The translations under genes and the position numbers were made by a program. Source: Methanobacteriota archaeon (GTDB taxonomy: Archaea; Thermoplasmatota; Thermoplasmata; Methanomassiliicoccales; UBA472). Taken from it: 64,000 bases of DNA. Position 1 is the stretch's first letter, and each line of letters starts with the position of its first letter. Below the pieces are notes generated by a model. That model had not been told where the DNA came from. It saw only the letters and a list, made by a program, of their open reading frames with translations, and searched no databases. Location: assembly GCA_012729095.1 (NCBI GenBank), contig JAAYDU010000034.1:178-64177 (forward strand), given 5' to 3'. Positions 28,332 to 61,543 of this stretch are shown here, piece by piece.

Positions 28332-28348
28332 TTGGACGATATGACCAA
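28332..28348. promoter_or_regulatory. Degenerate copy of the corrinoid-locus palindrome: TTGGAC-GATAT-GACCAA
   Basis: Read directly from the sequence. It ends 47 nt upstream of ATG 28396. 3 mismatches to TTGGAT-N5-ATCCAA. Confidence 0.3.
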
Positions 28349-28395
28349 CAGGTATTATATGGACAAGGGCATTCGGATGCGCCAAGGACTGTTAG

Positions 28396-29445
28396 ATGAG
28401 GAAGCTCATAATCCTGCTGGACGGCGCGGCCGACGAGCGCATACCGATATTCAACAACCGCACTCCCCTGGAGGCGGCCCATAAGGACTTCTTGGACGGA
28501 GTTGCCCGCGAGGGAAAGATGGGCACCACCGACGGTAAGGACTATACCCACACGTTCCTGCTGGAACTTCTCACCGGCAAGCCCTACGACGTCCCGCGGG
28601 GCGTCATCGAGGCCTACGGCCTGGAGCTGCCCATCGGCGAGGGTCGGGTGGCCTATCGCATGACCCCGGCCAAGGTGAACGACCACAACGTGGAGTGGTA
28701 CTACAACATCACCTGCGACGAGGAGATGTTCCTGCAGAGGGCCATAATCAAGAACCGGTCCAAGCTGGCCGGCATGGACCCCAAGATACTGGCCTATCAC
28801 GGGGGAAAGGGGGTGCTCACGGTCAGGGCCGATCATATACTGGACCTGCCCAAGCCGCCTGGACCGGCCAGGCTCAACGGCGAGGACCTGGGCATCTTCG
28901 AGGACTTCGCCCGCGGCGTGAGGGACAGCACCGGCGGTATCGCCCTACTTCCCTGGGGAGGCGGGCTGGGCAAGGTGGCCGTGGACGTTCGACGGGAGAT
29001 AACCAAGGTCCCGGACCTTGTGGTCATATCTAAAAGCCCTTCCGCCCTTGGAGTGGGGAAGTTCCTGGGAATGGAGACCGTTCGCGTTCAGGGGTTCAAG
29101 GAGGGCGCCAAGGTGGCCGCAAAGCGCCTTGACGGGGACGACGTGTTCCTGCACGTGGAGGAGACGGACGATGTCAGCCACAAGTGCAACCCCAAGAACA
29201 AGCTGAAGCTCATAGAGGAGATAGACAGGGAGCTGGCCCGTTACGAGGACCGCTTCAGGGCGTGCCAGGTGGCCTTGCTGATAGATCACGGCGCGTCATC
29301 GGTGACCGGGGAACACATGCGCATGAAGGTCCCCTACGCCGTGCGAGGCGGCAGGTGGAAGGATGGCGGGGCGGACGGCTTCCACGAGAACGGGGGGGAG
29401 AACGTCCCCCTGGGAACCCTGCTGGACACCATCCTTGAGGATTGA
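28396..29445 (+). CDS. Divergent ApgM-like alkaline-phosphatase-superfamily protein (cofactor-independent phosphoglycerate mutase family)
   Basis: LIILLDGAADE...TPLEAAHKDFLDGVAREG, HVEETDDVSH, LIDHGAS. Shorter (349 aa) and more divergent than typical ApgM. Confidence 0.55.
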   Translation: MRKLIILLDGAADERIPIFNNRTPLEAAHKDFLDGVAREGKMGTTDGKDYTHTFLLELLTGKPYDVPRGVIEAYGLELPIGEGRVAYRMTPAKVNDHNVEWYYNITCDEEMFLQRAIIKNRSKLAGMDPKILAYHGGKGVLTVRADHILDLPKPPGPARLNGEDLGIFEDFARGVRDSTGGIALLPWGGGLGKVAVDVRREITKVPDLVVISKSPSALGVGKFLGMETVRVQGFKEGAKVAAKRLDGDDVFLHVEETDDVSHKCNPKNKLKLIEEIDRELARYEDRFRACQVALLIDHGASSVTGEHMRMKVPYAVRGGRWKDGGADGFHENGGENVPLGTLLDTILED

Positions 29446-29500
29446 GCGCCCAATTCATTAGGGAAGCTGGCAATAGGTTAAATACGTTCCTCACGTTGAT

Positions 29501-29517
29501 TTGGATGATACAACCAA
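29501..29517. promoter_or_regulatory. Palindrome TTGGAT-GATAC-AACCAA upstream of cobT
   Basis: Read directly from the sequence. It ends 33 nt upstream of ATG 29551. A TTAAATAC TATA-like box lies about 20 nt upstream of it. Confidence 0.5.
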
Positions 29518-29550
29518 TAGGAAGTTGCGTCGAATCCAGAGGTCTGTGAT

Positions 29551-30654
29551 ATGCAAAGGGCCGACATCATATACGCGTTCGAGGAGCAGGAGGGAAGGAA
29601 GTTCATGAGGAGGGTGTGGGGCAAGCGCCCCACCTTCGCCGTGGTGATAGGGAACACGGAAACGGCCAAGATACCGGGCGTGTCCGCGGCGGGCGCCGTT
29701 CCGGAGATCACCGATTTCACTCCCGCGGCCGACGTGGAGCTCCTTCATTACGGACGGTGCAAGTGCATCGACGGCGTTCCGGTGACGCCCACTGGCGTTC
29801 CCACCCCGGGCATCATAACCATGAGCGCCCTGCAGCTGTTCCCGATGCCCACCTTCGCCATCAACTCCGGCGTGCGGGTGAGGCCGCACACCCCTTACTT
29901 CGAAATGGAGGGGGTTCCAGGCCAGGACATACGCACGGGCAGGGCTCTAGACGACCCCCGCAGGGTCTACGAGAACGGGGTGCTCCTGGGCAAGGAGCTG
30001 GCCAAGAGCAGCGAGTACCTGGTGGTCGGAGAGAGCATAGCCGGGGGAACGACGACCGCCCTCGCCGTCCTGATGGCCATGGGCTATGACGGGCAGGGCA
30101 AGGTCTCCAGCAGCATGATAGACAACCCCCACTCCCTGAAGGAGCGGATCGCGCTGGAGGGGATTTCTAACTCCCCCTTCAGCAGGGAGGAGATGAGGGC
30201 GGACCCCTTGAAGGCGGTACAGGCCGTTGGCGACCCCATGATGCCGGCCGCGGCTGGCGTGGTGGCCGGGGCGGCGGAGAACGTACCGGTGATCATGGCC
30301 GGGGGCACGCAGATGGCGGCGGTTATGGCCATAGTGGCCGGGCTGTCCCCGGGGTCGTTGCGCAACCTGGTACTGGGAACCACCAAGTGGATAGTCAACG
30401 ACCGTTCCTCCGACGTCCGCTCCATAGTCAGCCAGATAGGCAGCGTTCCCATATTGGCCGCCGACCTGGACTTCGGCCCTTCCGTGCACGAAGGACTGAA
30501 CGTCTTCGAGAGGGGACTGGTGAAGGAAGGCGTGGGCGCCGGCGGCGCCTCCATAGCCGCCTTCCTGGCCTCCCAGGGGTCCGTGGACGCGAAGCTGATG
30601 CTGGCGCAGGTGGAGGACAATTACGTACGGCTTATGAAGATCATGGGCAAGTGA
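29551..30654 (+). CDS. cobT: Archaeal-type nicotinate-nucleotide--dimethylbenzimidazole phosphoribosyltransferase (UPF0284/CobT)
   Basis: FAVVIGNTETAKIPGVSAAG, GESIAGGTTTA, MAGGTQM. Confidence 0.8.
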   Translation: MQRADIIYAFEEQEGRKFMRRVWGKRPTFAVVIGNTETAKIPGVSAAGAVPEITDFTPAADVELLHYGRCKCIDGVPVTPTGVPTPGIITMSALQLFPMPTFAINSGVRVRPHTPYFEMEGVPGQDIRTGRALDDPRRVYENGVLLGKELAKSSEYLVVGESIAGGTTTALAVLMAMGYDGQGKVSSSMIDNPHSLKERIALEGISNSPFSREEMRADPLKAVQAVGDPMMPAAAGVVAGAAENVPVIMAGGTQMAAVMAIVAGLSPGSLRNLVLGTTKWIVNDRSSDVRSIVSQIGSVPILAADLDFGPSVHEGLNVFERGLVKEGVGAGGASIAAFLASQGSVDAKLMLAQVEDNYVRLMKIMGK

Positions 30655-31267
30655 GCCGCTGGCCCAGCATCTTCTCCGCCTTGCGCAGGTCGCCCACGGT
30701 GTTGACGTTGATGGCCACGTCCGGCGTGTCGGCGATGTAATAGCCTCCAGGAAGGTATTCCCGGGTCAGCATCATGGCCCGGTCCACAACGCTCACCCCG
30801 CAGGGCATCAGCGGACGACCGTCCACGTTCTCGTAGAAGGTGACGTCCACCCCGAACTCCAAGGCCCTCTCCAGGGGTATCCCGACGGTCAGGGACCGAT
30901 CCTTCCTCCTCAGGTACTCCCTGACCACGTCCGAAACCGTCTCCGCGCGCAGCAAGGGCAGGTCGGCAGGGCAGATGAATACATGGTCCTCGGCCATGCC
31001 CTCCGCGGCCTGGATGAGGTCGTGGCAGTATTCTGTCCCGGACGTTTCGAGTAGAGCGACCCCCATCCGCCTCAGGTGCTCCCTGGTCATCGGCACGTTG
31101 TCGCTGACGGAAACGTAAACGGACGATATCTCATCGACCAGCATGATCTGCTCCAGGACGTGGTCTATCATCGGCCGCCCGTGCAGTAGCGCCATAGGCT
31201 TCTCCGTGCCGAGCTCCTTGATCCGGGTCCCCCGCCCTCCAGCGGTTATGAGCGCGGCAACGCTCAT
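30641..31267 (-). CDS. cobY: Adenosylcobinamide-phosphate guanylyltransferase (archaeal CobY)
   Basis: ALITAGGRGTR...KPM, nucleotidyltransferase fold. ATGA overlap with cobS. Confidence 0.75.
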   Translation of the reverse strand: MSVAALITAGGRGTRIKELGTEKPMALLHGRPMIDHVLEQIMLVDEISSVYVSVSDNVPMTREHLRRMGVALLETSGTEYCHDLIQAAEGMAEDHVFICPADLPLLRAETVSDVVREYLRRKDRSLTVGIPLERALEFGVDVTFYENVDGRPLMPCGVSVVDRAMMLTREYLPGGYYIADTPDVAINVNTVGDLRKAEKMLGQRLTCP

Positions 31268-32193
31268 AGAGCCACCAGCAACATCATCGCGATCAGCACT
31301 ACCGGCCGGGAGATCTCGTTCGTGGCGCCCATGACATCGCCGTTCACCGCCCCGAAGTTCTTCATGGCCGTTCTGCTCATGTAGAGACCGACCAGGGAAC
31401 TGACCAGGCCGCCTGCGATGGTGAACAGCAATATCCTGTCCACTTGCCAGACGAGGGTCGGCATGCAGACCATCAGAACCAGGCCGAAGGCCAGCAGCAC
31501 CGAGAGGACGAGAGAAACGACGGTCTGCCTCCCCTTCGTATTGGAGACGAACGCGTTTCCCAGCCCCTCGCGGGCCTTGCCGCCGTAGGCGCAGAATACC
31601 ATGGCGTTCTTGTTCATTATCTCGACGATCAGCGGAAAGAGAAGCATCTCGGCCTGGCCGGTGAGGGAGGCTAGCGCGGCGAAGCTGACAAGGGTGAACA
31701 CGAGCGCGTAACCCACGCCGCCCGCCCCGGTCTTGGAGTCCTTAACGGCCGCCAAGCGTCGTTCGGCATTGCCCCCGCAGACCATCCCGTCCCCGAAGTC
31801 GCTCAGCCCGTCCATGTGCAGGAACCGGTTCAGAAGATGGAGCAATGCCAGCACCAGGGCCGCCACTACCGCTGTGGGCAACAGGTCCTGACATAGGAAG
31901 TAGACGAGAGAGGCGAGGATGCCGTACAGTGCCCCCACGGGAACGATGAGGTAGAACCTGCGAGAAAGATCGTCCACGTCCTCCCCGTCCACCTTGGCGG
32001 GAATGATGGTGAAGAGGGTGAGGGCGGCCTTGATCGCGCCTAGGACAGACGTTCCTCTCCCTCCAGTATCTCCGAGTAGATGACGGACATGGTGGCTCCG
32101 ATCAGGGAGGCGACTATGTCGTCCATGAACGGGCCCAGCGTTGAGAGTATTCCTGGCTTCTTCTTGTCGTAGCGGATGTACTCGAAGACGCAC
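31264..32193 (-). CDS. cobS: Adenosylcobinamide-GDP ribazoletransferase (cobalamin synthase); true start uncertain, homologous part begins about 32052
   Basis: AIKAALTLFTIIP, FLHMDGLSDFGDG, multiple TM helices. The only canonical upstream start, GTG 32193, adds 49 Arg/His-rich residues read from the +1 frame of cbiZ-cobZ. Confidence 0.8.
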   Translation of the reverse strand: MRLRVHPLRQEEARNTLNAGPVHGRHSRLPDRSHHVRHLLGDTGGRGTSVLGAIKAALTLFTIIPAKVDGEDVDDLSRRFYLIVPVGALYGILASLVYFLCQDLLPTAVVAALVLALLHLLNRFLHMDGLSDFGDGMVCGGNAERRLAAVKDSKTGAGGVGYALVFTLVSFAALASLTGQAEMLLFPLIVEIMNKNAMVFCAYGGKAREGLGNAFVSNTKGRQTVVSLVLSVLLAFGLVLMVCMPTLVWQVDRILLFTIAGGLVSSLVGLYMSRTAMKNFGAVNGDVMGATNEISRPVVLIAMMLLVAL

Positions 32194-33185
32194 TTCGAAC
32201 CGCCTATGTACTCGGCCAGGGCGATGCCCAGCAGCTCGTCCGCCAGAAGGTGCACGGGGTCCTCCTGGTACTTCGCCTCGTTCAGACCGTACAGCTGCCC
32301 GTAACGCCCCCTTTCCTCAAGGGAGATGGCGGCGGTCAGCAGCGCGTTCACGTTTATGTCCTTGGCCAGCGTTTCCAGCCTCGACTCGAACCTCCCGCGC
32401 ACCTCGACCTCGTTCCAGGCGGGGTCCAGGGCGTTCATCTGCCTCACGCACTCCCACATGTCGTCGTAGGTTATGCCGCGAATGGCCAGATGCCTCAGGA
32501 AATGAACGGAGTCTCCGTTCGCCCCCTTCCACCTGGCGATCGATTCACCTAACGCCGAGCGCACGGCCACTGCCATGGCGATGCCGTGATCGGAGCTGCT
32601 TCCGGACCACAGGCACCTCTCACCGTCGGACGGGCACATCACGAGCACGGCGTCGCTTGTCGTACCCGTCCCGGGAATGTGATGGTCCCGCAGCGCCGCG
32701 ACCTTGGCCTCGGTGACCGTCATTATCGCGTTGGCAAGGGCGCAGTCGTCCAGAGGTTCGTCCGTGACGACCATGACATTGATGGTGCCGACCTGGCGAT
32801 GGGGCACCGAACCCTCGCGGGAAGATTCCCCGGCGTTTATGGCATTGGATATGCCGGCGCTGACGCAGGCGATGGCCTCGGAGCCGTTCTGCGCGACGTC
32901 CCTGGCGCAGAATGCCTTGTCCAGTTCCGCCGCGGTCATGAAGCACACGGTGTCCGCCGGCAGTTCCAGCCGGGGGAGCAGGGATCGCATGTGCGCGACC
33001 GGATCGCTGTGATCGTAGTGCAGTGGCACCTGAAGCATCAGCACCGAGTCGGCCTCCCCCAGCCCGCCGTTGAGTATCGTGGAGGCAATGGCGCGCATGC
33101 GGCGTGGAAGCCTGATCGCCACGTACCTGTACCCGTCCAATACGCCCTTGTCGATCCGCATCTCGCTCAGTTTCATCTCAAACAC
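32040..33185 (-). CDS. cbiZ: Fusion: adenosylcobinamide amidohydrolase CbiZ + PgpA-like CobZ (alpha-ribazole/AdoCbl-5'-phosphate phosphatase) domain
   Basis: N-terminal about 250 aa is CbiZ-like (STILNGGLG, GTINVMVVTD, AIMTVTEAK, GTGTTSD). The C-terminal about 120 aa carries PgpA-type motifs (DELLGIALAEYIGG, GPFMDDIVASLIGA). Confidence 0.7.
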   Translation of the reverse strand: MFEMKLSEMRIDKGVLDGYRYVAIRLPRRMRAIASTILNGGLGEADSVLMLQVPLHYDHSDPVAHMRSLLPRLELPADTVCFMTAAELDKAFCARDVAQNGSEAIACVSAGISNAINAGESSREGSVPHRQVGTINVMVVTDEPLDDCALANAIMTVTEAKVAALRDHHIPGTGTTSDAVLVMCPSDGERCLWSGSSSDHGIAMAVAVRSALGESIARWKGANGDSVHFLRHLAIRGITYDDMWECVRQMNALDPAWNEVEVRGRFESRLETLAKDINVNALLTAAISLEERGRYGQLYGLNEAKYQEDPVHLLADELLGIALAEYIGGSKCVFEYIRYDKKKPGILSTLGPFMDDIVASLIGATMSVIYSEILEGEERLS

Positions 33186-34173
33186 CTATCGATCCCAGCA
33201 GCAAGTTCTCCACGAACAGCTGCACCTCCACCCCTACCAGCAGGTACAGGGGCACTACCGCCGCGAACACGAAGAGATACGATGCTAAGGTCATGACCTT
33301 TATGGTGTCCCTAAGCACCTCGGGGTCCGACGGCAGCGGCCCGTCGCCCATCACGTACCATCCCACCTTCTCGAAGCGTATACCCAGCCCGCCGGCGAAG
33401 GCGGACATGTGCCAACCCTTGTTCGGCGACAGCGTCTGGTCGTGGTACCTCTTGGAAGCGGACCAGCCGGCCCTCCAGTCCTTGCCCATGACCATCAGGG
33501 CAAGAAGCACGAACGGAACTGCGGCCCTGGCCATGACGAAGTTCGTGCAGTCGTCGAGCTTGGCCGAGAACCATCCCACGTGGCGGTATTTATCATTGAG
33601 ATAACCGACCATGGCGTCCAGGGTGTTCGAGGCGCGGTAGGCCACGGCGGCCGGAAGTCCCAGCAGCCCGAAGTAGAAGAGCGGGGAGAATATGCTGTCC
33701 ACGGTGTTCTCCGCCGCGCTCTCCGCCGCGCAGGATATGACATGCCCCCGGTCCAGTTCGCTGACGTCCCTCGACACCATCATGGCCGCCTTGCGCCTTC
33801 CCATTTCCAGGTCACCGGCCAGAAGGGCCTTGCGTACCGGCTCGGTGTGCTTTCCCATGGCCGACATGGCGAACATGGTCTTCAGGATCACCCCTCCGAC
33901 GATGGCCCATGCGACAAGACCGAGCGCGTCCCGGACCAGGGCCATCAGGAGCAGCGACAGGAAAGAGAAGGAAAGCATGACCGCCAGGGCCATGACCGCC
34001 CCCAGGAGGCGCTCCCGGCGAGGGTGCCCCCGCGATATGCGCTTATCGAGAGACGATATCGCCCTGCCCATCCATACCACGGGATGCAGCGCGTTCGGCG
34101 GTTCGCCGAGGAAACGGTCGACCAGCAGGGCGACCGTGATGGTGAGGAACGCGTAAGGCACCAGTTCAAACAT
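33178..34173 (-). CDS. cbiB: Adenosylcobinamide-phosphate synthase
   Basis: LGEPPNALHPVVWMG, SRDVS, ENTVDS, SPNKGW. Confidence 0.9.
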   Translation of the reverse strand: MFELVPYAFLTITVALLVDRFLGEPPNALHPVVWMGRAISSLDKRISRGHPRRERLLGAVMALAVMLSFSFLSLLLMALVRDALGLVAWAIVGGVILKTMFAMSAMGKHTEPVRKALLAGDLEMGRRKAAMMVSRDVSELDRGHVISCAAESAAENTVDSIFSPLFYFGLLGLPAAVAYRASNTLDAMVGYLNDKYRHVGWFSAKLDDCTNFVMARAAVPFVLLALMVMGKDWRAGWSASKRYHDQTLSPNKGWHMSAFAGGLGIRFEKVGWYVMGDGPLPSDPEVLRDTIKVMTLASYLFVFAAVVPLYLLVGVEVQLFVENLLLGSIGV

Positions 34174-35320
34174 GCATCCTCGCCCCGAAGGCCGTGCTGC
34201 GGATCTCCCTCGCCGTCTCCTCCATAGCGGAGATCAGAAGATCGTTCTTCTCCGGCGTCTTCACGCTGAAGCGGACGAACTTTTCGAACGGCCGACCGAA
34301 GGTGGAGCAGTCCCTGACCAGCACCTTTCGGGGCAGCAGGTGTTCCACGATGTCCTTCGCCGTCAGCTTGGGGTCGTTCACACGGGTGAAGAAGAAGAAG
34401 CACTGGTCAGGCAGGGGGGAGAAGAGGCCGATATGGTCCACGGCCTTCTTTATGCGGTTGCGCTCGGAGGACATCATCTCCGCCGCGCGTCGCACGTGGT
34501 CCTGGTGATCGCTAACGAGCCTGGTCCCTACGTACTGCTCTATAGCGCCCATGTTCCAGGAGAGCCTGGCGCGGTCCATCATGCTCACTACCTCCTCGCT
34601 TCCCACCCCGTAGCCGACGCGCAGCCCGGGTATGGCGAAGGATTTGGTCAGAGAGGATATGATGAACAGGTTGGAATGGCCGCGCACCTCGGACATGCAG
34701 GACAGGGAGTCATGACCGTCCACCAGGTCCAATAGCGTCTCGTCCAGGAACACCAGCTTGCCGGCCGCCTCGCACTCGTCCACCAGCTCCATTATGCGCC
34801 TTTTCGGTTCCACCGTTCCGGTGGGATTGTTGGGATTGCAGATGTACAGCGCCCTGGCCAGCGGCAGCTTCTCGCGGATGGCGTTGAGGTCCAGGCGGAA
34901 CCCTTCCCCCTCTATCAGCGGCGCGTCCATTATGTTCGCCCCCTGCATGCGGCAGGCGTGCGAGTACTCGGAGAACGTAGGCCTGGGAATTATGACCCGG
35001 GCCTTGCGGGAGAGGAACACCTCTGGATACAGCCTGATAAGCTCGGCCGAACCGGCCCCGGCTATGACGTTCTGAGCCTGGACGTTGTGCAGCTTCGCCA
35101 CCGCCTCCCTGAACTCCGCGGCCGTGTCGTCCGGATAATGGACGAGCTGCTCCATCGCCTCGGTCACGAGCCGCGGCAGCTCGGCTGGAGGCCCGTACGG
35201 GTTTAGGTTGTGGCTGAAGTCCTCCACTCCGGGGAACTTCCAGCCCTGGCCTCCGTGCACGGGCCGCTTAATCGGCAACAATTCCTTTTTCACGAGGTCT
35301 TGTATCTTCATCGTCGCCAT
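34166..35320 (-). CDS. cobD: L-threonine-O-3-phosphate decarboxylase (class I/II aminotransferase fold)
   Basis: NLNPYGPP, YPD, CNPNNPTG, FLDETL, SLTKSFAIPGLRVGY. Located between cbiB and the importer genes. Confidence 0.8.
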   Translation of the reverse strand: MATMKIQDLVKKELLPIKRPVHGGQGWKFPGVEDFSHNLNPYGPPAELPRLVTEAMEQLVHYPDDTAAEFREAVAKLHNVQAQNVIAGAGSAELIRLYPEVFLSRKARVIIPRPTFSEYSHACRMQGANIMDAPLIEGEGFRLDLNAIREKLPLARALYICNPNNPTGTVEPKRRIMELVDECEAAGKLVFLDETLLDLVDGHDSLSCMSEVRGHSNLFIISSLTKSFAIPGLRVGYGVGSEEVVSMMDRARLSWNMGAIEQYVGTRLVSDHQDHVRRAAEMMSSERNRIKKAVDHIGLFSPLPDQCFFFFTRVNDPKLTAKDIVEHLLPRKVLVRDCSTFGRPFEKFVRFSVKTPEKNDLLISAMEETAREIRSTAFGARMHV

Positions 35321-36131
35321 TCTCCGGGTCCACCGGTCTCAACGGGATCACGTACAGTTCCCCGTTGTCCCGGAGCACCGTCACCTCCACTCCGTAGACA
35401 ACGCGGATGACATCCTCGTTGATCACCTCGGCCGGAGGTCCGTAGCTGATTATGCCGCCTTCGCTGATGACTATGATCAGATCGGCGTACTTGGCTATCA
35501 GGTTGATGTCGTGCGAGGCGGTTATGACCGTCACTCCCTGGCGGGAGAGGTCCTTCAGTGCCTGCATGACCTGAAGCTTGAACTTGAGGTCCAGATGGGC
35601 GCTGGGCTCGTCGGCCAGCAGTATCTTGGGCTGCTGGACGGCGCCTTTGGCCAAAAGCACCCGCGCCTTCTCGCCGCTGCTGAGCTCGGCGAGCTTCCTG
35701 TCCTTGAGGTGGGTGACGTGATACGCCTTCATGGCCTCGCGGACCAGCTGCTCGTCCTTCTCCCCCTCCCACCAGATGCCGGTGACGAACGGATATCGTC
35801 CAAGAGCCACGAACTCCTCCACTGAAAGGTGGAAGTCGTCCGGCACGTCCGCGGGGATGTTGGCGCATATCTTGGCCACCTCCATCATCTTGAGGCGGTC
35901 CAGGTCCTTGCCGTCTATGAAGATCGCCCCCTCCTGCGGCTTGAGCACCTTGTTTATGCAGCGCATGAAGGTGGTCTTGCCGCAGCCATTGGGACCCATT
36001 ATCCCTATGAGCTGCCCCTGGCGCGCGTCTATGGTGATGCCTTTCAGCGTCTTGGCGCAGAGGTTCTTTTTGGCGCCGTAGCTGAAGGATATGTTGTCCA
36101 CCTTCACCGTCAGCTCGTCGTCACATGACAT
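35268..36131 (-). CDS. ABC transporter ATPase, FepC/BtuD-like (corrinoid/metal-chelate importer)
   Basis: GPNGCGKTT, LSSGEKARV, LLADEPSAHLD, SHD. Confidence 0.85.
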   Translation of the reverse strand: MSCDDELTVKVDNISFSYGAKKNLCAKTLKGITIDARQGQLIGIMGPNGCGKTTFMRCINKVLKPQEGAIFIDGKDLDRLKMMEVAKICANIPADVPDDFHLSVEEFVALGRYPFVTGIWWEGEKDEQLVREAMKAYHVTHLKDRKLAELSSGEKARVLLAKGAVQQPKILLADEPSAHLDLKFKLQVMQALKDLSRQGVTVITASHDINLIAKYADLIIVISEGGIISYGPPAEVINEDVIRVVYGVEVTVLRDNGELYVIPLRPVDPENGDDEDTRPREKGIVAD

Positions 36132-37164
36132 ATTCCTTGCCCATCCTGATCATCAGGTAGCCGAAGAACGGCGCTCCGATGATCGATATTATGGCCCCGA
36201 TGGGGAGCTCCGAGGGAGCCACCACCGTCTTACATACAATGTCGGCCACCAATAGAATGTTTGCCCCTAGCACCATGGAGGCCGGCAGCAGCAGCCGGTG
36301 GTCGCCGCCTATGAGCATGCGCACCAGGTGGGGGACTATGAGACCGACGAAGCCTATAACGCCTGTGAAGGCCACGCACACGGCCGCCAGGGCGGAGACC
36401 AGCACGAACATGACTGTCTTGAACGACCTCACGTTCATCCCCAGCTGCCTAGCCTGCTCGTCACCGAGAAGTATCACATTGAACTCCTTGGCGAACAGCA
36501 GCATGACCAGGGAGAGCACCGCCACGACCAGCACGATGAGCTTTACAGAGCTCCAGTCCAGATAGGCGAAGGACCCGAACAGCCAGAAGAGCACCCCATG
36601 CAGCCGGTCGGCGTTGAAGTACATCAGGAGGGTGGTCCCGGCCTGCATGGCTATGCTGATTATCACCCCGCCCAGAACATAGCTTATCGGGCGCCCGCCC
36701 GCAGCCTCCGCCAGTGCCATGGTGAACATGAAGGCCCCGACCGCGCCTATGAAGGCGATTATGGGCAGGGAGTAGGTGGTCATGCCCAATATAGATACCC
36801 CGGCCAGTACCGCCAGCGTTGCGCCCAGACCGGCGCCTGACGATACCCCGGTGATGTACGGGTCGACAAGAGGGTTCCTGATCAGGGCCTGCATCACCGC
36901 CCCGGCGACCGAGAGACCGATGCCCACCGCTATCACGCCCAGGGCGCGGGGGATGCGCAGCTGCCAGAGCACCAGTTCTTTGTTGTCGGTGTGCTCCCCC
37001 CCGTTCTGTATGAGGTTCCAGAGACCGGACATGGCCTCGTGGAAGGATATGTCCATGACCCCAGTGGTCAGAGAGAGTATGAAAAGGATCACAATTCCGA
37101 TGGAGCCCATGCCTAGGATCAACGCTAGCTTCAGCTTGGCCCGGCTTGCCTTGGTCCCTTCCAT
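36121..37164 (-). CDS. FecCD/BtuC-family ABC permease
   Basis: 347 aa with about 9-10 TM helices. RIPRALGVIAVG, LLGDEQARQLG, GVIGFVGLIVPH. Confidence 0.85.
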   Translation of the reverse strand: MEGTKASRAKLKLALILGMGSIGIVILFILSLTTGVMDISFHEAMSGLWNLIQNGGEHTDNKELVLWQLRIPRALGVIAVGIGLSVAGAVMQALIRNPLVDPYITGVSSGAGLGATLAVLAGVSILGMTTYSLPIIAFIGAVGAFMFTMALAEAAGGRPISYVLGGVIISIAMQAGTTLLMYFNADRLHGVLFWLFGSFAYLDWSSVKLIVLVVAVLSLVMLLFAKEFNVILLGDEQARQLGMNVRSFKTVMFVLVSALAAVCVAFTGVIGFVGLIVPHLVRMLIGGDHRLLLPASMVLGANILLVADIVCKTVVAPSELPIGAIISIIGAPFFGYLMIRMGKEYVM

Positions 37165-37193
37165 CGATCATCACCCGTGTTGGACCGCCGGAG

Positions 37194-37210
37194 CCGGTGC
37201 GTTGCACCGG
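37194..37210 (-). promoter_or_regulatory. Intercistronic stem-loop CCGGTGC-GTT-GCACCGG (7-bp perfect stem)
   Basis: Read directly from the sequence, in the 122-nt spacer between the binding-protein and permease genes. Confidence 0.4.
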
Positions 37211-37227
37211 ACAGCGGTCTTTTGTTT

Positions 37228-37272
37228 CCCGTAACACAGGCCAGATATTTCAATTGCGCCTGGTGTCACGGG
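37228..37272 (-). promoter_or_regulatory. Second, longer imperfect intercistronic hairpin (CCCGTAACACAGG ... CCTGGTGTCACGGG)
   Basis: Read directly from the sequence. About 13 pairing positions with one G-U and one bulge, and a loop of about 18 nt. Confidence 0.35.
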
Positions 37273-37286
37273 GAAGGAGGACGCGT

Positions 37287-38381
37287 TCATTCGAACTTGA
37301 CCTGCATCACCGCCGCGACCTCGGTCGCCTCCGCGGAGGCCGGGTAGGCCACCGACGGCCCCTCGGCGGACAGCCAATCCACATAGTCGTTGGATATCAC
37401 GTGTGGCAGGCTGACGTTGAAGACGCCGGGATGCAGTATCAGCGCCATTATCTCCACGGCGTCCACCATGCGCGGGCCGGGGCGGCAGAACACGTTGTCG
37501 GCCTGCCCGGTCATGATGTACACCCGGCCGTTCTGAACGGCGGACAGCTCTGACCATATGGTGTCGTTCTCCAGGCTTGATATTATCTCCTCGCCAGGTG
37601 ACGACAGGTACATCATGGAGACGATGAGATAGTCGGGATCCGTCTCCAGCAGCGATTCCACCGATACCTCGGGCCACCCGGTCAGGTTCGAATAGACGTT
37701 GTCGCCCCTGGAATGCGCGATCACGTCCGCGGTGAAGGTGTCGTTGCCGCTGAGGTATATCGGGTCGAGCCACACCGCGAAGGTCATGGTCGGAGCGTCC
37801 TGGACATCGCCAATGGCCTCCTCTATGCCGGCCAGCCTCTGGTTCATCGATTCGATCAGGTCCTCGGCCTCCTCCTTGACCCAGCATATCTCGCCGATCA
37901 TGCCCATGGCCTCGTAGACCTCGTCGAAGGTGGCGCCCTTTTCGAGCACGATGACGTTCAAGCCACCGTTCTCCAGCTGGGACAGCATGTCCAGCTGGGC
38001 CTGCACGCCTTTGTCGAGAAGTATCAGGTCCCCGTCCGCGGAGATCACCGCCTCTACGCTGGGAGTGAAGTACCCGCCCACGGAGACCAGTGAACCGTCG
38101 GTCTTCCTGGCGTTAACGTCCTCCGGCCAGTCGCAGTAGTCGGTGACCGCGACCAGGCGGTCACCTATTCCCAGCGCGTAGACTATCTCCGTCAAGGACG
38201 GGGAGCAGGACACGATGCGCATAGGCGCCTCCTCCGTCACCACCGTCCTTCCGTTCGCGTCTATCACGGATGCAGCTCCCTCACCATCTCCCCCCGATGG
38301 GTCCGTTTCCAATACCATTATGGTCCCGACGACTACCAGCGCCACGACCAGCACGATTGCGATAACTGCCTTCTTATCCAT
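37287..38381 (-). CDS. Periplasmic-binding-protein type substrate-binding protein (BtuF/FepB-like), N-terminal membrane anchor
   Basis: MDKKAVIAIVLVVALVVVG anchor, RIVSCSPSLTEIVYALG, DYCDWP. Start set at ATG 38381; the track's 38441 start reads through the operator repeats. Confidence 0.8.
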   Translation of the reverse strand: MDKKAVIAIVLVVALVVVGTIMVLETDPSGGDGEGAASVIDANGRTVVTEEAPMRIVSCSPSLTEIVYALGIGDRLVAVTDYCDWPEDVNARKTDGSLVSVGGYFTPSVEAVISADGDLILLDKGVQAQLDMLSQLENGGLNVIVLEKGATFDEVYEAMGMIGEICWVKEEAEDLIESMNQRLAGIEEAIGDVQDAPTMTFAVWLDPIYLSGNDTFTADVIAHSRGDNVYSNLTGWPEVSVESLLETDPDYLIVSMMYLSSPGEEIISSLENDTIWSELSAVQNGRVYIMTGQADNVFCRPGPRMVDAVEIMALILHPGVFNVSLPHVISNDYVDWLSAEGPSVAYPASAEATEVAAVMQVKFE

Positions 38382-38405
38382 AGGACCGACTTCCCGGTTG
38401 TTTAG

Positions 38406-38422
38406 TTGGATAATACATCCAA
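38406..38422. promoter_or_regulatory. Perfect palindrome TTGGAT-AATAC-ATCCAA (site A)
   Basis: Read directly from the sequence. Begins 24 nt upstream of the importer start codon (38381, minus strand), in the divergent promoter region. Confidence 0.55.
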
Positions 38423-38428
38423 CTTTTA

Positions 38429-38445
38429 TTGGATATATCATCCAA
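38429..38445. promoter_or_regulatory. Perfect palindrome TTGGAT-ATATC-ATCCAA (site B)
   Basis: Read directly from the sequence. Its centre lies 23 bp from the centre of site A. Confidence 0.55.
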
Positions 38446-38530
38446 GTATTAAACCGTTAGCGGTCGTTTTTATATCAATGGCACGCACGTATGGTTGAGA
38501 GGACGGTGAGGAGGTGGCGGCATCAAGTTC

Positions 38531-39007
38531 ATGGACGAGCTGAGGAACGAGCCCATTCTGCTGGCCCACCACCCGCTGTGCGGCCGTTTCGATGATCATC
38601 TGCTGACCATAGGAGGCCGAAAGGTGTGCCGGGGCTGCATCACGGTGTACCCTACGTTCCTGGTGATGTTTTTTCTCGTGTTCATGGGTCGACCGTCGTT
38701 CGAGGCCGCCTTCTTCGCGTCGCTGCTCCTGTTCTCAGTTCAACTGATGCGCTTCGTCGCATCTGGACGATGGACGGCCATCTTGTTCAACGTGGTTCTG
38801 GGATCGAGCCTGGCCCTGGCACTGTACTCCGCCATGATATGTCCTCCCGAACTGAGGATCTACGTTTACCCGTTCATATTGACCGTGATCGTCGTCTTCG
38901 AGTACCTAAAGGGGAAGAGGATGCTGAAAAAATGCGAGGAGTGCCCGGACCGCGCCTCCTACCCGAAGTGCGCGAGGGGGCCCGTGAACCCATATGATGG
39001 AAAATAA
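38531..39007 (+). CDS. Cys-motif membrane protein, DUF2085-like
   Basis: HHPLCGRF...GGRKVCRGCITVYPTF followed by 3-4 TM helices, and a C-terminal CEECPD...PKC. Confidence 0.5.
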   Translation: MDELRNEPILLAHHPLCGRFDDHLLTIGGRKVCRGCITVYPTFLVMFFLVFMGRPSFEAAFFASLLLFSVQLMRFVASGRWTAILFNVVLGSSLALALYSAMICPPELRIYVYPFILTVIVVFEYLKGKRMLKKCEECPDRASYPKCARGPVNPYDGK

Positions 39008-39060
39008 TGGGCAATGAATAAATATTCATCACGCGAATGTCAGTTAAAAGGTGGAGCATC

Positions 39061-39366
39061 ATGTCAAAGGAATTCACTGGCAGCTGGATCATAGTGATCA
39101 TCTTGATCTTGATATGCTGGCCTGCGGCTTTGATCTACTTCATAATGAAGTACGAGGAAAGGTCGCAGTACGGAACGGGCTATTATGGAAATCAAGGCCA
39201 GCCATATCAGCAGCCTTATCAACAGTCCTATCAGCAGCCGCCTCAGCAGTACCAGCAGCCCCCGCAACAGTACCAGCAGCCCGACCAGAGCAACACCTGC
39301 AAGAAGTGCGGGGCCAGTTACGAGCCTGGCGCCCAGTTCTGTCCGAAGTGCGGCGATCGCCTCTGA
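39061..39366 (+). CDS. Small membrane-anchored protein with a Q/P/Y-rich low-complexity linker and C-terminal zinc ribbon
   Basis: TM helix WIIVIILILICWPAALIYFIM, then GYYGNQGQPYQQPYQQSYQQPPQQYQQPPQQYQQP, then CKKCG...CPKCG. AAGGTGGAG lies 4 nt upstream of ATG 39061. Confidence 0.55.
   Translation: MSKEFTGSWIIVIILILICWPAALIYFIMKYEERSQYGTGYYGNQGQPYQQPYQQSYQQPPQQYQQPPQQYQQPDQSNTCKKCGASYEPGAQFCPKCGDRL
39238..39279 (+). repeat. Tandem 21-nt in-frame coding repeat (2 x PPQQYQQ)
   Basis: ccgcctcagcagtaccagcag / cccccgcaacagtaccagcag, read directly from the sequence. Confidence 0.7.
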
Positions 39367-39380
39367 GGCTACCGGCCCAT

Positions 39381-40226
39381 TCATACGAGCCTTGAGACCT
39401 TCTCCAGGTCCCAGGCCCCCTCCCATTTTTCCAGCAACCTGTCCAGCTCCAGCATCCAACGCTGTCGCATATCCCCGGACCCTGTAGCGCCGGCAGGCCG
39501 CCTCGTCATGTCCAGGGAGTCCTCGGCGGGGGCGCTGAACCGCACCAGCGGCAGGACCCCCAGGCAGGGCATGTCCATGCGGGACTCCAGCTCCTCGATC
39601 CCCTTCCCCAGTATGGAGGCGTCGCCGCGGAACCTGTTGATGACGAAGCCTTTGAGGAGGTCCCTCTCCTCCTCGTCCATCAGAAGGTACGTGCCGTAGA
39701 TGCCGGCGAACACCCCTCCCTTCTCTATGTCCCCGACGAGCAGCACCGGGGAGCGCGTGGCCTTGGCCAGCCACATGTTGCTGACGTCCTTCTCCTTCAG
39801 GTTCATCTCCACCGGCGAGCCCATGCCCTCGATGAGCAGCATCTCCCGTCCCAGGGCGTTATCGCGGAACGCCTCCAGCACCTCCTCCCTCAGCGTTCCA
39901 ATGACCCGCGGCGTGCTCTCTCCCGGACCGAGGTCCCTCCACGGCCTTCCGCGGAGCACTACCTGGCATTGCCCGTTGCCCTTCGGCTTGATCAGTATGG
40001 GGTTCATGTCCGAAGATGGTTCGAGACCGCAAGCCCATGCCTGGTATGCCTGGGACATCGCCATTTCCTTCCCGTCGCTGGTGACGAAGGAGTTCAGGGA
40101 CACGTTCTGTGCCTTGAAAGGGGCCACGTCCACACCTTGTCGGCGGAAGTGCCGGCACAGGGCGGCGGTTAGCGTGGTCTTGCCCGCGCCCGAAGTGACG
40201 CCCTGGACCATCAGCCTACGGGCCAT
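39381..40226 (-). CDS. CobQ-like ATPase-domain-only paralog (no glutamine amidotransferase domain)
   Basis: MVQGVTSGAGKTTLTAALCRHFRRQGVDVAPFKAQNVSLNS...NPILIKPKG...IEGMGSPVEMNL parallels the N-terminal half of the adjacent CobQ. Ends after about 281 aa. Start ATG 40226 overlaps the cobQ stop by 11 nt. Confidence 0.65.
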   Translation of the reverse strand: MARRLMVQGVTSGAGKTTLTAALCRHFRRQGVDVAPFKAQNVSLNSFVTSDGKEMAMSQAYQAWACGLEPSSDMNPILIKPKGNGQCQVVLRGRPWRDLGPGESTPRVIGTLREEVLEAFRDNALGREMLLIEGMGSPVEMNLKEKDVSNMWLAKATRSPVLLVGDIEKGGVFAGIYGTYLLMDEEERDLLKGFVINRFRGDASILGKGIEELESRMDMPCLGVLPLVRFSAPAEDSLDMTRRPAGATGSGDMRQRWMLELDRLLEKWEGAWDLEKVSRLV

Positions 40227-42069
40227 CCGGGTCCCCCCTGAGCAGCGCGTCCAGGTCGAGATGCTCCTCCACCAAAGCGGCCAGCCGGTCCAATGATGAA
40301 TCGATCTTCGCCTCATGGTCCATGCCGGCCGATTCGGCCTCATGGCGGTGTTCCACCATCGAGAGGAAGAGGCGGCGGAATGCGGGCAGGTCGAAGGCCC
40401 CGTGAAGATAGGTCCCCATGACATTCCCCTCCCTGTTCCATGAGCCCTCCGCCCTCCCGTCCGGGTCGAGCATGAAGAGCGGTTCCTCGGAACCCTCGGT
40501 GCGGCCCATGTGTATCTCGTACCCCCTCACCTCCCCCCCTCCGATGGCGAGGGAGCCGCTGACCTGCACGGTCCTCTTGTCGTATGAATCGAAATGAGTG
40601 ACTGCGTCGATTAGCCCCAGGCCGTCCATCTCCTTGGGGCCTTCCCCCTCCAGTCCGTGAACGTCGGAGATCCTGCGGCCGAGCATCTGGTAGCCGCCGC
40701 ATATTCCCAGGACGGGGACCTTACCCGCTTTGGCCAGTATTGCAGAGGCCACGCCGCTCTCCCTCAGCCAAAGCAGGTCCTGCACGGAGTTCTTCGTTCC
40801 GGGCAGTATGATGGCGTCCGCCGTTTCCAGTTCCTCCGGCGCATTCGCGTAGATCACGCTCACGCCCTCCTCCAGGGACAGGGCGTCGAAGTCTGTGAAG
40901 TTGGATATCATAGGAAGGCGTATCACTGCCACGATCGTGCTCCCGGCGCCTCCGGGACGCTGGTCGAGGTCCATGGAATCCTCCACGGGAAGATAGAGGG
41001 AGGGGACGTGTGGCAGCACCGCCAGCACCGGCACGCCGGTAGTTGCCTTCACCAGTTCCAGGGATTCCCCGAGGGAGCCGCCCCCGGGGCACATGTTGTT
41101 GATGAGCACGCCCTTGAAGAGCTTGCGCTCCTCCTCGTCCAGGAGCATCAACGTGCCGATGGCGTAGGCGAACGCCCCGCCCCAATCGATGTTCACGGCC
41201 AGCAGGCAATCGGCCTTGGCCAGCTTGGCCACGTACATGTTGGCGACGTCCCTTCCCCGGAGGTTGATCTCGGCGGGCGAACCGGCCCCCTCGATGACCA
41301 CCACGTCGTTCATGCGCATGAGGCGGTCCAAATTGCGGGCGATGATGGCTGGCGCCTCGTTGGGAACGAAGTCGGAGTAGTACTCCTGCACGGTAAGGTC
41401 CTTGTAAGGGCGCCCCTCCACGATGACCTGGGACGTCACCCCGCCCTTGGGCTTCAGAAGTATGGGGTTCAGATCCCCTCTCGGGCGAGTTCCCGCCGCT
41501 CGCGCCTGCAGGTCCTGTATTCGAGCGATCTCCTCGCCGTCCGCGGTCACCATGGAATTGAGCGACATGTTCTGCGATTTGAAGGGGGCGACCCTGAGGC
41601 CGCGCTCGCGGAACGCCCGGCAGAGGGCCGCCACCAGAAGCGATTTGCCGGCCCCGGACGTTGCGCCGAGCACCATGATCGCCTTGGCCCTCTTGCGGTG
41701 CCTGGCCTCCAGGTCACGCTTCAAGCGCGACCGGGTCTGGCGGTCCAGACCTCGGGGGCCGACCTCTGGCATAATGACCATCAATGACGATGCCACGTCC
41801 CCGCGGTGCATCCACATGCACTTCTGGCAGGACCACACCTTCCCGCCGGTGCGACCGGAGGTGACGAACTCTCCCAGTGCCGTGTCCTCACATGGATACA
41901 GCGGGCAGTAGCAGAACGTGCAGTCCTGATCCGGGTGATGGCAGGGGAAGTACGGGCATTCATGGTTGCCGCCGATGATGCCCCGGGCCATCTGAGAGCG
42001 CAGGACCTCAGCGTACTTGGAGTAGTTCTCCTCCGAGTCGTCCGGGACCTGTTCCGTTGGATTAATCAT
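40216..42069 (-). CDS. cobQ: Cobyric acid synthase with N-terminal cysteine-rich small domain
   Basis: [30 protein letters not shown], then [30 protein letters not shown], and the GATase part [10 protein letters not shown]...HG. An alternative start is ATG 41991. Confidence 0.85.
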
Positions 42070-42073
42070 CCAA
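42057..42073. promoter_or_regulatory. Perfect palindrome TTGGAT-TAATC-ATCCAA overlapping the cobQ start codon
   Basis: Read directly from the sequence. It spans ATG 42069-42067 (minus strand). An ATATTAT TATA-like element lies about 27 nt upstream on the minus strand. Confidence 0.5.
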
Positions 42074-42160
42074 TTGGGTCAAACCCCTGAGCCCATAATA
42101 TCCTTTTGCCCGGCCCTGCAACATTTTAATCGAAGGATTGCTTACTGCCATTCGAGAAAG

Positions 42161-48268: not shown

Positions 48269-49765
48269 TCAACGCTTTATGTTTATCGTGGTGATCACGC
48301 GGGCGTCCTTGCCCTTTCCGATGAACGCCAGGTAGCAGATGGCCTCGTTGCGGGAACCCCCCTTGCCAATGATGATGCTGGGTATCGATATCCTACCGTC
48401 GGCGTTGATGCGACGGGGCTTACCCTCCCCCATCTGGAACTCCAGAAAACCAGTGGTCCTGCCCATGGCCAGTACCTCCTGCTTGGTGCACCCGAGCTCG
48501 TAGCACAGGGCCATGTTGACCTGGTGTATCGCACCATCTTGATCGGTGACCACGATCGGGATGGGATAGCTGTCCATGCTCCCCGCTGCCGGCCCCGCAG
48601 GGTCCAGGACCTCGTTCTTCAGCGCGTCTATGTTCCTCCAAGATTCCGCATCCTGGACCGTGGCGCCCTTCGGGAGCACTATGACGACGATGCTGTCCAC
48701 CTCGTCCCCCATCATGACCGGTACCAGCCGGGTCTCCACGGCGAGAGGGCCGAACTTGCCGTTCAGATACCCCTCGATGATGGACTGCTGAGCGAAATGG
48801 AACACCTCGTTGAACAGTTTCCCGGCGCCGTTGGGCAGGTCGGGGAACAGTTCGAACACGGACCTTCCCTCGTACGAGGTGCCCGGCCCCATGTCCTTCA
48901 GGTACTTGACGAAGGTATGGTTGCCGATGGTGACCCTGAGCTCACGGTCTATCATGAACACCATTTCAGGCATGGCATCCAGCATTGTCCGCAGATTGTT
49001 CTCTGCCCGCAACAGGGCGAACTCCACCATGCGCCGATGGACGATCTCCTCCGGCAGCTCGCGGTTCATATCGATCAGCATGGACCGCTCGCGCCTCTCC
49101 TTCTCCCGGATGTCCAGCTCCTCCTTGATGTTGTCAAGGTGCTCGAAAAGGTCACGGTATGACTCCTCGAGGGGCTTGGCACGGCGGGGTATATGGTAGA
49201 AGTTGCGGCACAGTACGCCATCCATTATGATGTTGGGATAGGAGGCCAGGGACCGGAGCAGGAAGCCTGGGGAGAGGGAGGTCATGTCGTAAAGGCAGAC
49301 CATGGTCACCCCCAGCTCATCGCGCTCATCATCGAGTTCCAACCAGGCGCCCTCCCCCGGAGAGTGCGTGTTCAGTTCCTCGGGTATGTTGATTATCAGC
49401 CGGGTGCCGGCGTACCCCATGCCCTTGGCCTTCTGGACGAAGCTTTGCATCAGCTCCTTGAAGTTGGAGCGGGAACAGTTCCCTTGGATCGTCTTCTCGA
49501 GAGGTATCGCCTCTATGGAAGGATGGGAGTCCAGGTCGAGGCCCCTCGCCCTCAGCTTCTCCCTCAGCAGTGACGGCGGGGATCGGAACAGCAGCTTGCA
49601 CATCTCCTCCTGCCTTATGCTGTCCTTAAGAAGGTCGGCGAGAGGGTCGAACACGTCATCCAGACGGTGATAGAACAGGGCGGCCTTCTCCCCCGGAGGC
49701 ATGGCCAGGGCTGGCTTGGACGATGCCGGGGAAGCTGCCTCGCAGAGACCGTTCGAGCCTATCAC
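48269..49765 (-). CDS. MEDS domain + two PAS domains sensor protein without recognisable output domain
   Basis: N-terminal ALFYHRLDDVFDPLADLLKDSIRQEEMC...CLYD (MEDS-like), then a coiled-coil linker, then two PAS-like segments (LRTMLDAMPEMVFMIDRE..., PIPIVVTDQDGAIHQVNMA...). An alternative start is ATG 49702. Confidence 0.6.
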   Translation of the reverse strand: MIGSNGLCEAASPASSKPALAMPPGEKAALFYHRLDDVFDPLADLLKDSIRQEEMCKLLFRSPPSLLREKLRARGLDLDSHPSIEAIPLEKTIQGNCSRSNFKELMQSFVQKAKGMGYAGTRLIINIPEELNTHSPGEGAWLELDDERDELGVTMVCLYDMTSLSPGFLLRSLASYPNIIMDGVLCRNFYHIPRRAKPLEESYRDLFEHLDNIKEELDIREKERRERSMLIDMNRELPEEIVHRRMVEFALLRAENNLRTMLDAMPEMVFMIDRELRVTIGNHTFVKYLKDMGPGTSYEGRSVFELFPDLPNGAGKLFNEVFHFAQQSIIEGYLNGKFGPLAVETRLVPVMMGDEVDSIVVIVLPKGATVQDAESWRNIDALKNEVLDPAGPAAGSMDSYPIPIVVTDQDGAIHQVNMALCYELGCTKQEVLAMGRTTGFLEFQMGEGKPRRINADGRISIPSIIIGKGGSRNEAICYLAFIGKGKDARVITTINIKR

Positions 49766-61427: not shown

Positions 61428-61543
61428 TGATTCATGTACATATGAACATATATACATATTTTAGGGGCTTTCCGATCGCGTACCGACCTTGACCTGGGAG
61501 GAAGCGATAGCCTGCCAACCCGCGTCAACGTCCTTGCGGCCAG

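Follow-up and report, generated by a model that had tools for sequence, protein, structure and literature searches.

A large share of the world's cobamides is made and used by archaea. To our knowledge they have no B12 riboswitches, and the regulation of their B12 supply has been open since an in silico hint in 2003. In that year, Rodionov, Vitreschak, Mironov and Gelfand reportedly predicted that a hypothetical B12 regulator acts through a 'CBL-box' in certain archaea; we know of no Methanomassiliicoccales, Asgard or Bathyarchaeia genome that existed at the time, and of no protein that was assigned to the box. For thiamine, the archaeal vitamin regulator ThiR takes the place of the riboswitch. 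For riboflavin, RbkR is a winged helix-turn-helix (wHTH) vitamin regulator with palindromic operators that was found by comparative genomics (PMC5397151). TrmBL1 of Pyrococcus furiosus binds the Thermococcales glycolytic motif (TGM), TATCAC-N5-GTGATA, which lies mostly directly downstream of the TFB recognition element (BRE) and TATA box, where binding blocks RNA polymerase recruitment, and in a minority of cases upstream of the promoter (PMC4706686). Here, we describe a 17-bp palindrome, TTGGAT-N5-ATCCAA, that recurs at the cobamide (B12) genes in 64 kb of DNA from the metagenome-assembled genome (MAG) of a Methanomassiliicoccales archaeon (contig JAAYDU010000034.1 of assembly GCA_012729095.1; the whole stretch is hereafter called the window). 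We consider it likely that a dimeric transcription factor controls the cobamide regulon of this organism, with this palindrome as its operator. The Methanomassiliicoccales are gut and rumen methanogens, and their methyl-reducing metabolism is fully dependent on corrinoid proteins. Methane-emission phenotypes have been associated with the btu and cob genes of this group (PMC10804542).

A pattern search of the window found three perfect copies of the palindrome (38406-38422, 38429-38445 and 42057-42073) and one with a single mismatch (29501-29517, TTGGATGATACAACCAA), and a looser pattern recovered a weak copy with three mismatches (28332-28348, TTGGACGATATGACCAA). Dinucleotide shuffles give an expectation of 0.08 matches at no more than one mismatch, against the four observed, and none of 100 shuffles reached four. 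All five sites fall in the promoter regions of cobamide genes, in a window of which about 94% is coding. Only three further matches exist at up to three mismatches, all with exactly three; two are intragenic (26144 and 54008), and the third lies between genes of the histidine-biosynthesis region (16930). An earlier note, made from the sequence of the window, had proposed four strong palindromes at cobamide promoters and a weaker fifth copy at 28332 before a gene for an ApgM-like protein; the searches confirm the four and recover the fifth.

The sites, which are given without a strand, lie close to the start codons of the genes that they precede. Two stand in tandem before btuF, with centres 23 bp apart. 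The proximal one (38406-38422, TTGGATAATACATCCAA) begins 23 nt past a TATA-like box and stands 24 nt upstream of the btuF ATG, and the distal one (38429-38445, TTGGATATATCATCCAA) abuts that box, 47 nt upstream of the ATG. The box itself, TTTAATAC on the minus strand at 38446-38453, was read from the sequence and marks a putative promoter. The cobQ operator (42057-42073, TTGGATTAATCATCCAA) starts 21 nt after the TATA-like GATATTAT (42095-42102) and encloses the cobQ ATG (42069-42067, minus strand), which suggests that the cobQ mRNA is leaderless or near-leaderless. The cobT operator (29501-29517) ends 33 nt before the ATG at 29551 and starts 16 nt after the TATA-like TTAAATA (29478-29484), a distance of 14-16 nt across relatives. 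The weaker variant at 28332-28348 ends 4 nt upstream of the TATA-like TATTATAT (28353-28360), within the divergent region common to the ApgM-like gene and a hypoxanthine-DNA glycosylase gene. With the starts fixed at 38381 for btuF (minus strand), 29551 for cobT and 42069-42067 for cobQ, the site-to-start distances reported earlier are right.

To place these sites in a wider context, 56 genome loci were fetched around BtuF relatives (L-numbers denote the loci of this analysis). The 19 Methanomassiliicoccales loci, 252.5 kb in all, contain 40 sites with at most one mismatch against 0.4 expected, an enrichment of roughly 100-fold, and the 32 bacterial btuF loci (507.7 kb) contain one match, taken as chance. 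The sites in the related loci always precede orthologous btuF, cobQ and cobT, and the motif stands directly before btuF in every Methanomassiliicoccales locus with upstream DNA. Close relatives keep the tandem btuF pair 22-23 bp apart; distant relatives (BtuF identity 30-40%, G+C content 41-65%) have the pair 35 bp apart or a single site. When 12 btuF promoters are aligned, nothing is invariant but the end of the TATA box, the pair of sites and the ATG; the flanks diverge while the sites persist. The cobQ operator is kept in eight relatives, and in L005 the spacer is changed with the half-sites intact. The cobT operator is kept in L001, L002, L006, L009-L011, L017, L154 and L182. Even the weak variant at the ApgM-like gene, TTGGACGATAYGACCAA (TTGGAG in L006), is kept in six relatives with diverging flanks. 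Conservation upstream of orthologous cob genes, a check that the earlier note had asked for, thus appears as a clean footprint at btuF, cobQ and cobT.

These data bear directly on whether the sites could be chance occurrences or the remnant of a repeat or mobile element, which we regard as hardly credible. The motif is short, and a 15-base pattern has many chance matches in metagenomes, but four and 40 sites were observed where the shuffles predict 0.08 and 0.4, excluding the random-DNA frequency that had been named beforehand as speaking against the motif. Moreover, the sites hold orthologous positions across an order and beyond, with unconserved flanks. On the shuffles, the related-locus counts and the btuF alignment, this explanation was rejected.

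A symmetrised matrix of 56 distinct sites reads a/r-TTGGAT-g-w-w-w-c-ATCCAA-y/t. Positions 1 and 5 of the spacer are G/C in 62%, and its centre is A/T in 92-96%, a richness in A/T that lay outside the selection pattern of the matrix. The earlier remark that the spacer of the strong sites ends in C depends on the strand that is read; what stands of it is the 62% G/C preference at the two spacer ends.

The placement of the sites relative to the promoter is equally consistent. They usually begin 0-23 nt downstream of a predicted TATA-like box, and given this spacing they are predicted to span the expected transcription start at btuF, cobQ and cobT, in L121 and in L105/L108. The overlap with TATA and start regions that had been read from the window is supported by sequence inspection at btuF, cobQ and cobT and in the relatives. 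The last three bases of the btuF box are invariant, the box reading TTTATAC, ATATAC or similar in relatives, and at distant btuF promoters the single site starts 19-23 nt after TTAATATA. In tested archaeal systems, a site between the TATA box and the start codon represses (PMC4706686). This speaks against a factor that mainly activates its targets under B12 limitation, a reading that we find quite improbable. In its favour, the sites at the ApgM-like gene, at sirC in L167 and in L160 stand immediately before the best TATA-like box, and upstream binding can activate in archaea (PMC4706686); against it, the best-conserved promoters (btuF, cobQ, cobT, the L121 cluster and L105/L108) have their site between TATA box and start codon. 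The three upstream sites may act by activation, or by occlusion of BRE and TATA, instead of blocking the transcription start.

The same geometry separates a DNA operator from an RNA element. Each site can fold a 6-8 bp hairpin, and a simple terminator scan flags 38404-38424, so that the palindromes might act in RNA, with a protein or metabolite binding to them as hairpins of the 5' untranslated region (5'-UTR) or as terminators. Against this stand several observations. The distal btuF site abuts the TATA box and should therefore be untranscribed; sites occur in either orientation to the gene and also serve divergent promoters; and no gene ends at any site, all being at 5' ends and in divergent regions. 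Base identity, beyond pairing, is kept in the 56 distinct sites, and several deviations (TTGGTT..ATCCAA, ..GTCCAA, ..ATCCAT) break the pairing. The terminator match at 38404-38424 was rejected as a by-product of the palindrome. Finally, no Rfam family, including the cobalamin riboswitch (RF00174), reaches its gathering score anywhere in the window, which bears out the earlier statement that no cobalamin riboswitch is present there. An action as RNA is thus very improbable.

All the sequence-based tests speak for a protein-bound operator of a cobamide regulon. The sequences show the motif with its enrichment, conservation, position and regulon content, and the adjacency of a candidate factor gene in other archaea; we infer protein binding, repression and a corrinoid effector and, for this organism, the identity of the factor, and propose the following mechanism. 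A dimer would bind each palindrome, whose half-site centres, 11 bp apart, would put both half-sites on the same side of the helix. At btuF, the tandem sites are 22-23 bp or about two helical turns apart. Both spacings are compatible with cooperative binding of dimers. The protein bound over the transcription start would block the recruitment of RNA polymerase after TBP and TFB. The ligand-bound form is assumed to be the DNA-binding form, with a corrinoid, or possibly cobalt, as the ligand. With ample cofactor, the import of corrinoids and the salvage of cobinamide would then be shut off, together with the assembly of the nucleotide loop and the synthesis of cobyric acid; the feedback would extend to early tetrapyrrole and cobalt-uptake genes in other species. 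The regulator would be encoded elsewhere in the genome, with an N-terminal winged helix (PH0730-like_N) and a C-terminal DUF4443 that senses the ligand. In several archaeal phyla, orthologous and further genes of B12, of tetrapyrroles and of cobalt transport are probably under the same operator or, in Asgard MAGs, under its variant TAGGAT-N5-ATCCTA.

Pfam and NCBIfam confirm the gene calls that had been made for the window, namely the importer, cobD, cbiB, cbiZ/cobZ, cobS, cobY, cobT, cobQ and the ApgM-like gene. The tandem sites head the putatively regulated operon btuF, btuC (FecCD), btuD, cobD, cbiB, cbiZ/cobZ (CbiS), cobS and cobY (30641-38381, minus strand), in which a Peripla_BP_2 binding protein, a FecCD permease and an ABC ATPase form the importer and CobD is an aminotransferase. 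The same gene order is found in L001-L017, L177 and L180-L183. The second putatively regulated unit (39381-42069, minus strand) consists of cobQ (40216-42069), whose N-terminus is a cysteine-rich zf-like domain (PF04071), followed by a half-size CobQ paralogue (39381-40238) of 285 aa that contains the ATPase half only and no glutamine amidotransferase domain. An aconitase gene (42163-44767, plus strand) is divergent from cobQ in all close relatives, and the TATA-like box of this gene follows about 50 nt after the cobQ operator. The third putative target, cobT (29551-30654, plus strand), encodes an archaeal nicotinate mononucleotide:base phosphoribosyltransferase of the TIGR00303 type and is convergent to the btuF operon.

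Upstream of cobT, the ApgM-like metalloenzyme (28396-29445, plus strand) has its own conserved variant operator and adjoins cobT in all Methanomassiliicoccales loci that reach past cobT. It is a probable member of the regulon. No NCBIfam model scores the protein above its cut-off, the models for phosphoglycerate mutase and 'proposed homoserine kinase' included. Because the CobD of the window has no kinase domain, one may speculate that the ApgM-like enzyme is the missing archaeal L-threonine kinase, or that it performs another unassigned cobamide step.

Two genes for small membrane or zinc-ribbon proteins (38531-39366, plus strand) are divergent from btuF, and the btuF operators lie upstream of their TATA-like box (about 38469-38476); their membership in the regulon is uncertain. 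Both (38531-39007 and 39037-39366, plus strand) are conserved in close relatives only. The first encodes a protein with four transmembrane segments, Cys motifs at both ends and no family match, and the second a membrane-anchored, Q/P-rich protein with a C-terminal zinc ribbon. In L078, an S-component of an energy-coupling factor (ECF) transporter with a zinc ribbon takes the equivalent place.

The TP_methylase at 51334 is a diphthine synthase and not a corrin enzyme, and thus all cobamide transcription units of the window carry a site. The remaining genes serve amino-acid biosynthesis, HypF and housekeeping functions. At the edge of the window, an AAA_21 ATPase and a RloB-like protein (1243-3167, plus strand) form a pair in a stretch of slightly lower G+C content, which has the look of a module for defence or abortive infection.

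Outside the window, metagenome contigs were scanned for the exact pattern (TTGGATGATNNATCCAA), which gave at least 120 contigs, most of them chance matches (bacterial, eukaryote-like or intragenic); the archaeal contigs among the matches listed all have the site at B12-related genes. Two contigs (L084 and L134), in which the site adjoins a bacterial response regulator, were judged unrelated. The sites occupy four separate promoters in one btu cluster beside cobN (L121, Methanomethylophilaceae), those of the genes for an ABC ATPase and for a binding protein (L109), that of a btuF-btuC operon headed by an O-methyltransferase+MarR fusion (L130, a Methanomethylophilaceae MAG), the cobT promoter (L154) and the zf-cobQ promoter (L170). 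In Methanomassiliicoccus, one site lies 59 nt before sirC-hemA-hemL-hemC-cobA-hemD (L167), and a 2.45-Mb contig found through its CbiZ homologue has sites at btuF and cobT (L182). Another locus found in this way has an internal site at the cobD promoter (L179). In L078, the site lies in the divergent region between cobZ-cobS-cobY and a unit of an ECF S-component and a DUF71 protein of the B12-salvage type; in L076, L067 and L140 it lies at the promoters of secreted proteins, and in L105 and L108 at the cobalt transporter cbtB-cbtA. The CbiZ homologues from outside the Methanomassiliicoccales that were fetched for Thermoplasma- or Pyrococcus-type loci proved to be bacterial where DNA was present.

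The extracellular proteins of the site-controlled btu clusters (L179, 4097-7024; L076, 305-2215; L067, 1415-2191; L140, 3692-4666; L090, 1929-2372; L121, 3508-5975) include a PQQ-like beta-propeller fused to a FecCD permease, beta-propeller+PKD proteins, a DUF4430 protein and repeat proteins without a family. They may be archaeal surface corrinoid-capture proteins.

The content of this regulon also bears on the nature of the signal. The sites at cbtB-cbtA, together with the fact that FecCD/Peripla_BP_2 importers also carry iron chelates, would fit a regulator that senses cobalt, another metal or a precursor, and a metal-homeostasis regulon that includes the cob genes. The targets, however, are mostly corrinoid-specific (cbiZ, cbiB, cobS, cobY, cobT, cobQ and the DUF71 and DUF4430 proteins). 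In bacteria, moreover, cbtAB and btuFCD are both targets of the B12 riboswitch, and the motif is presumably unlike the DtxR and NikR consensus, a comparison made without alignment. Metal sensing is therefore rather unlikely.

A symmetric variant of the operator extends the argument to other phyla. The palindrome TAGGAT-N5-ATCCTA is found at btuF and cobT in Candidatus Jordarchaeia MAGs (L032 at 9781, L052 at 9921), in an uncultured archaeon (L029 at 1058) and in a 'Candidatus Bald...' MAG (L177 at 1713 and 10530). In these Asgard-labelled MAGs, base 2 is altered in both half-sites, and the TATA-proximal layout and the operon are the same. A symmetric change at base 2 is what would be expected of a symmetric dimer co-evolving with its operator. 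The cob operons of these MAGs have the gene order of the Methanomassiliicoccales (the CbiZ of L177 is 44% identical), which suggests that operon and operator were transferred together. L018 has degenerate copies of the motif, and in L160 (Thermoproteota) a single perfect site precedes a btuF-like gene.

The earlier note had seen no DNA-binding regulator in the locus; domain searches of the window proteins likewise found no dedicated regulator. A candidate did emerge from the other archaea. Among the matches listed, five contigs (L078, L090, L105, L108 and L140) have at the site a gene for a homologous protein of about 200 aa. In L090 (Bathyarchaeia), the site is followed in turn by an ECF S-component, a DUF4430 protein and a wHTH+DUF4443 protein; in L078, the wHTH+DUF4443 gene is the last of the site-headed ECF-S/DUF71 operon; in L140, the site lies between the wHTH+DUF4443 gene and a divergent secreted-protein gene. 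In L105 and L108, it lies 37 nt upstream of the wHTH+DUF4443 gene, between this gene and the divergent cbtB-cbtA, with TATA-like boxes on both sides of the single site. All four full-length proteins score above the Pfam gathering score for DUF4443 and have an N-terminal winged helix (PH0730-like_N or CggR_N), whereas the L108 copy is a 57-residue fragment from tblastn that fell outside the Pfam scoring. The L090 protein matches PDB 2P8T, 'hypothetical protein PH0730', with E=7.7e-12, and Pfam TrmB matches one of the four candidate proteins at E=0.0011, below the cut-off. A gene for a 'putative phage metallopeptidase' (SprT-like) lies beside the unit of operator and DUF4443 gene in two unrelated contigs (L090, 927-1325, minus strand; L140, 2616-3020, minus strand).

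The wHTH+DUF4443 gene is operator-adjacent or operator-headed in all five contigs, an apparent autoregulation. Because of this, of its adjacency to the site and of its co-transcription with B12 transport genes, the wHTH+DUF4443 (PH0730-like) family is the best candidate for the regulator that reads the operator. In the literature that could be searched, DUF4443 is mentioned only once, in a list of wHTH families (PMC6316755), and no function is described for it. A broader proposal is that this family, with 2P8T as its known structure, is a pan-archaeal corrinoid-sensing regulator that binds the palindrome as a replacement for the B12 riboswitch in Thermoplasmatota (Methanomassiliicoccales), Asgard archaea, Bathyarchaeia and AT-rich archaea that carry cbtAB, and that DUF4443 is a new sensor domain binding cobamide (or cobalt). 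We advance it tentatively, as an attractive possibility that falls a little short of being probable.

The competing view accepts the operator and holds that, in the Methanomassiliicoccales, it is read by a regulator outside the DUF4443/PH0730-like family, for example one of the TrmB, MarR or Lrp type or a cryptic archaeal factor. It is a real, if minority, possibility. No DUF4443 gene was found in the window or in about 300 kb of fetched Methanomassiliicoccales loci, and the role of the family in this organism is thus inferred; the 6-N5-6 geometry is identical to that of the TrmBL1 site, and cryptic archaeal transcription factors without canonical domains exist (AmzR). On the other hand, the DUF4443 gene stands at the same motif in five independent contigs among the matches listed, three of which also have B12 or cobalt transport genes at the site, and no other DNA-binding gene recurs near the sites.

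Several individual candidates were considered and rejected. The sole DNA-binding domain in the window belongs to an ArsR-HTH + S-adenosylmethionine-methyltransferase fusion (60384-61457, minus strand), which has no motif copy nearby. A MEDS+PAS sensor (48269-49765, minus strand) has no recognisable DNA-binding or kinase domain and is not syntenic elsewhere; in L122, a homologue (436-2073) lies directly upstream of the operator and btuF. The O-methyltransferase+MarR fusion of L130 (7456-8886, minus strand) was rejected as a general regulator because its family is essentially clostridial and does not occur in the other loci. Two close copies aside, the proteins most like it (about 50% identity) come from gut Clostridia, suggesting horizontal transfer. 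An 86-aa protein resembling a ribbon-helix-helix (RHH) protein, translationally coupled to the cob operon of the Jordarchaeia, has neither Pfam support nor a homologue elsewhere and is a weak lead only. Its N-terminus looks RHH-like by eye, and the protein has no family match; its gene is the first of two small ones (86 and 81 aa) that overlap, in L032 (18361-18863) and L052 (18505-19007), with the stop codon at which the cob operon ends. No transcription factor was found near the further cob operons of L177-L179 and L180-L186.

Some of these observations weigh against a B12 operator read by the wHTH+DUF4443 family and acting by repression. The operator, the TATA boxes and the transcription starts are all predictions from sequence. 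The sites at the ApgM-like gene, sirC and L160, which directly precede the best TATA-like box, depart from the usual layout; the L160 site, a single match, may be chance; the sites at cbtB-cbtA fit a metal signal as well; and with the DUF4443 gene missing from the DNA covered, another factor could read the site in the Methanomassiliicoccales.

A regulator of this kind would have several uses. The sharply defined operator can serve as a genomic marker for the B12 regulons of uncultured archaea, and it points to new candidate B12 genes, namely those for the ApgM-like enzyme, the secreted DUF4430 and beta-propeller proteins and the ECF S-components. The candidate regulator already has a solved structure. 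If the link to DUF4443 is true, this so far uncharacterised archaeal domain would be assigned a role, and archaeal genetics would have a new module for ligand sensing at its disposal.

Compared with the known systems, the palindrome resembles several and coincides with none of those set out here. CarH/LitR (MerR family) and PocR are likewise protein regulators linked to cobalamin; however, CarH is an adenosylcobalamin light sensor that acts on direct repeats, PocR senses propanediol, and neither feeds back on B12 supply. Near the sites described here, no B12-binding domain or MerR protein was seen. TGM and TrmBL1 share with the B12 palindrome the 6-N5-6 architecture, and they resemble it in the position predicted for most of its sites, after the TATA box, and in the control of transporters and pathway enzymes that is proposed for one factor. 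They differ in consensus, in pathway (sugar versus cobamide), in lineage and in protein (TrmB versus the PH0730-like/DUF4443 candidate), and since both sequence and protein differ, the B12 palindrome lies outside the TGM family. The CBL-box is the nearest earlier idea, reportedly a conserved DNA signal before archaeal cobalamin genes that stands in for the riboswitch and is read by a hypothetical regulator, and the motif is likewise a conserved signal upstream of genes of cobalamin synthesis and transport. The earlier view that archaeal B12 control is essentially uncharacterised stands in that the searchable literature describes no such motif and gives DUF4443 no function, and needs the caveat of the 2003 prediction. 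RbkR and ThiR offer a precedent for the candidate protein, with a wHTH domain, palindromic operators at the promoters of vitamin synthesis and transporter genes and frequent autoregulation, although they combine the DNA-binding domain with a pathway enzyme domain, whereas the candidate carries DUF4443, which has no known enzymatic relative. A parallel in physiology is the bacterial cobalamin riboswitch (RF00174), which follows the same logic and has near-identical targets (btuFCD-type importers, cob/cbi and cbtAB). There, the cofactor is bound directly by an RNA element of the 5'-UTR; here, the element is a palindrome in the DNA of the core promoter, which would probably be its archaeal counterpart.

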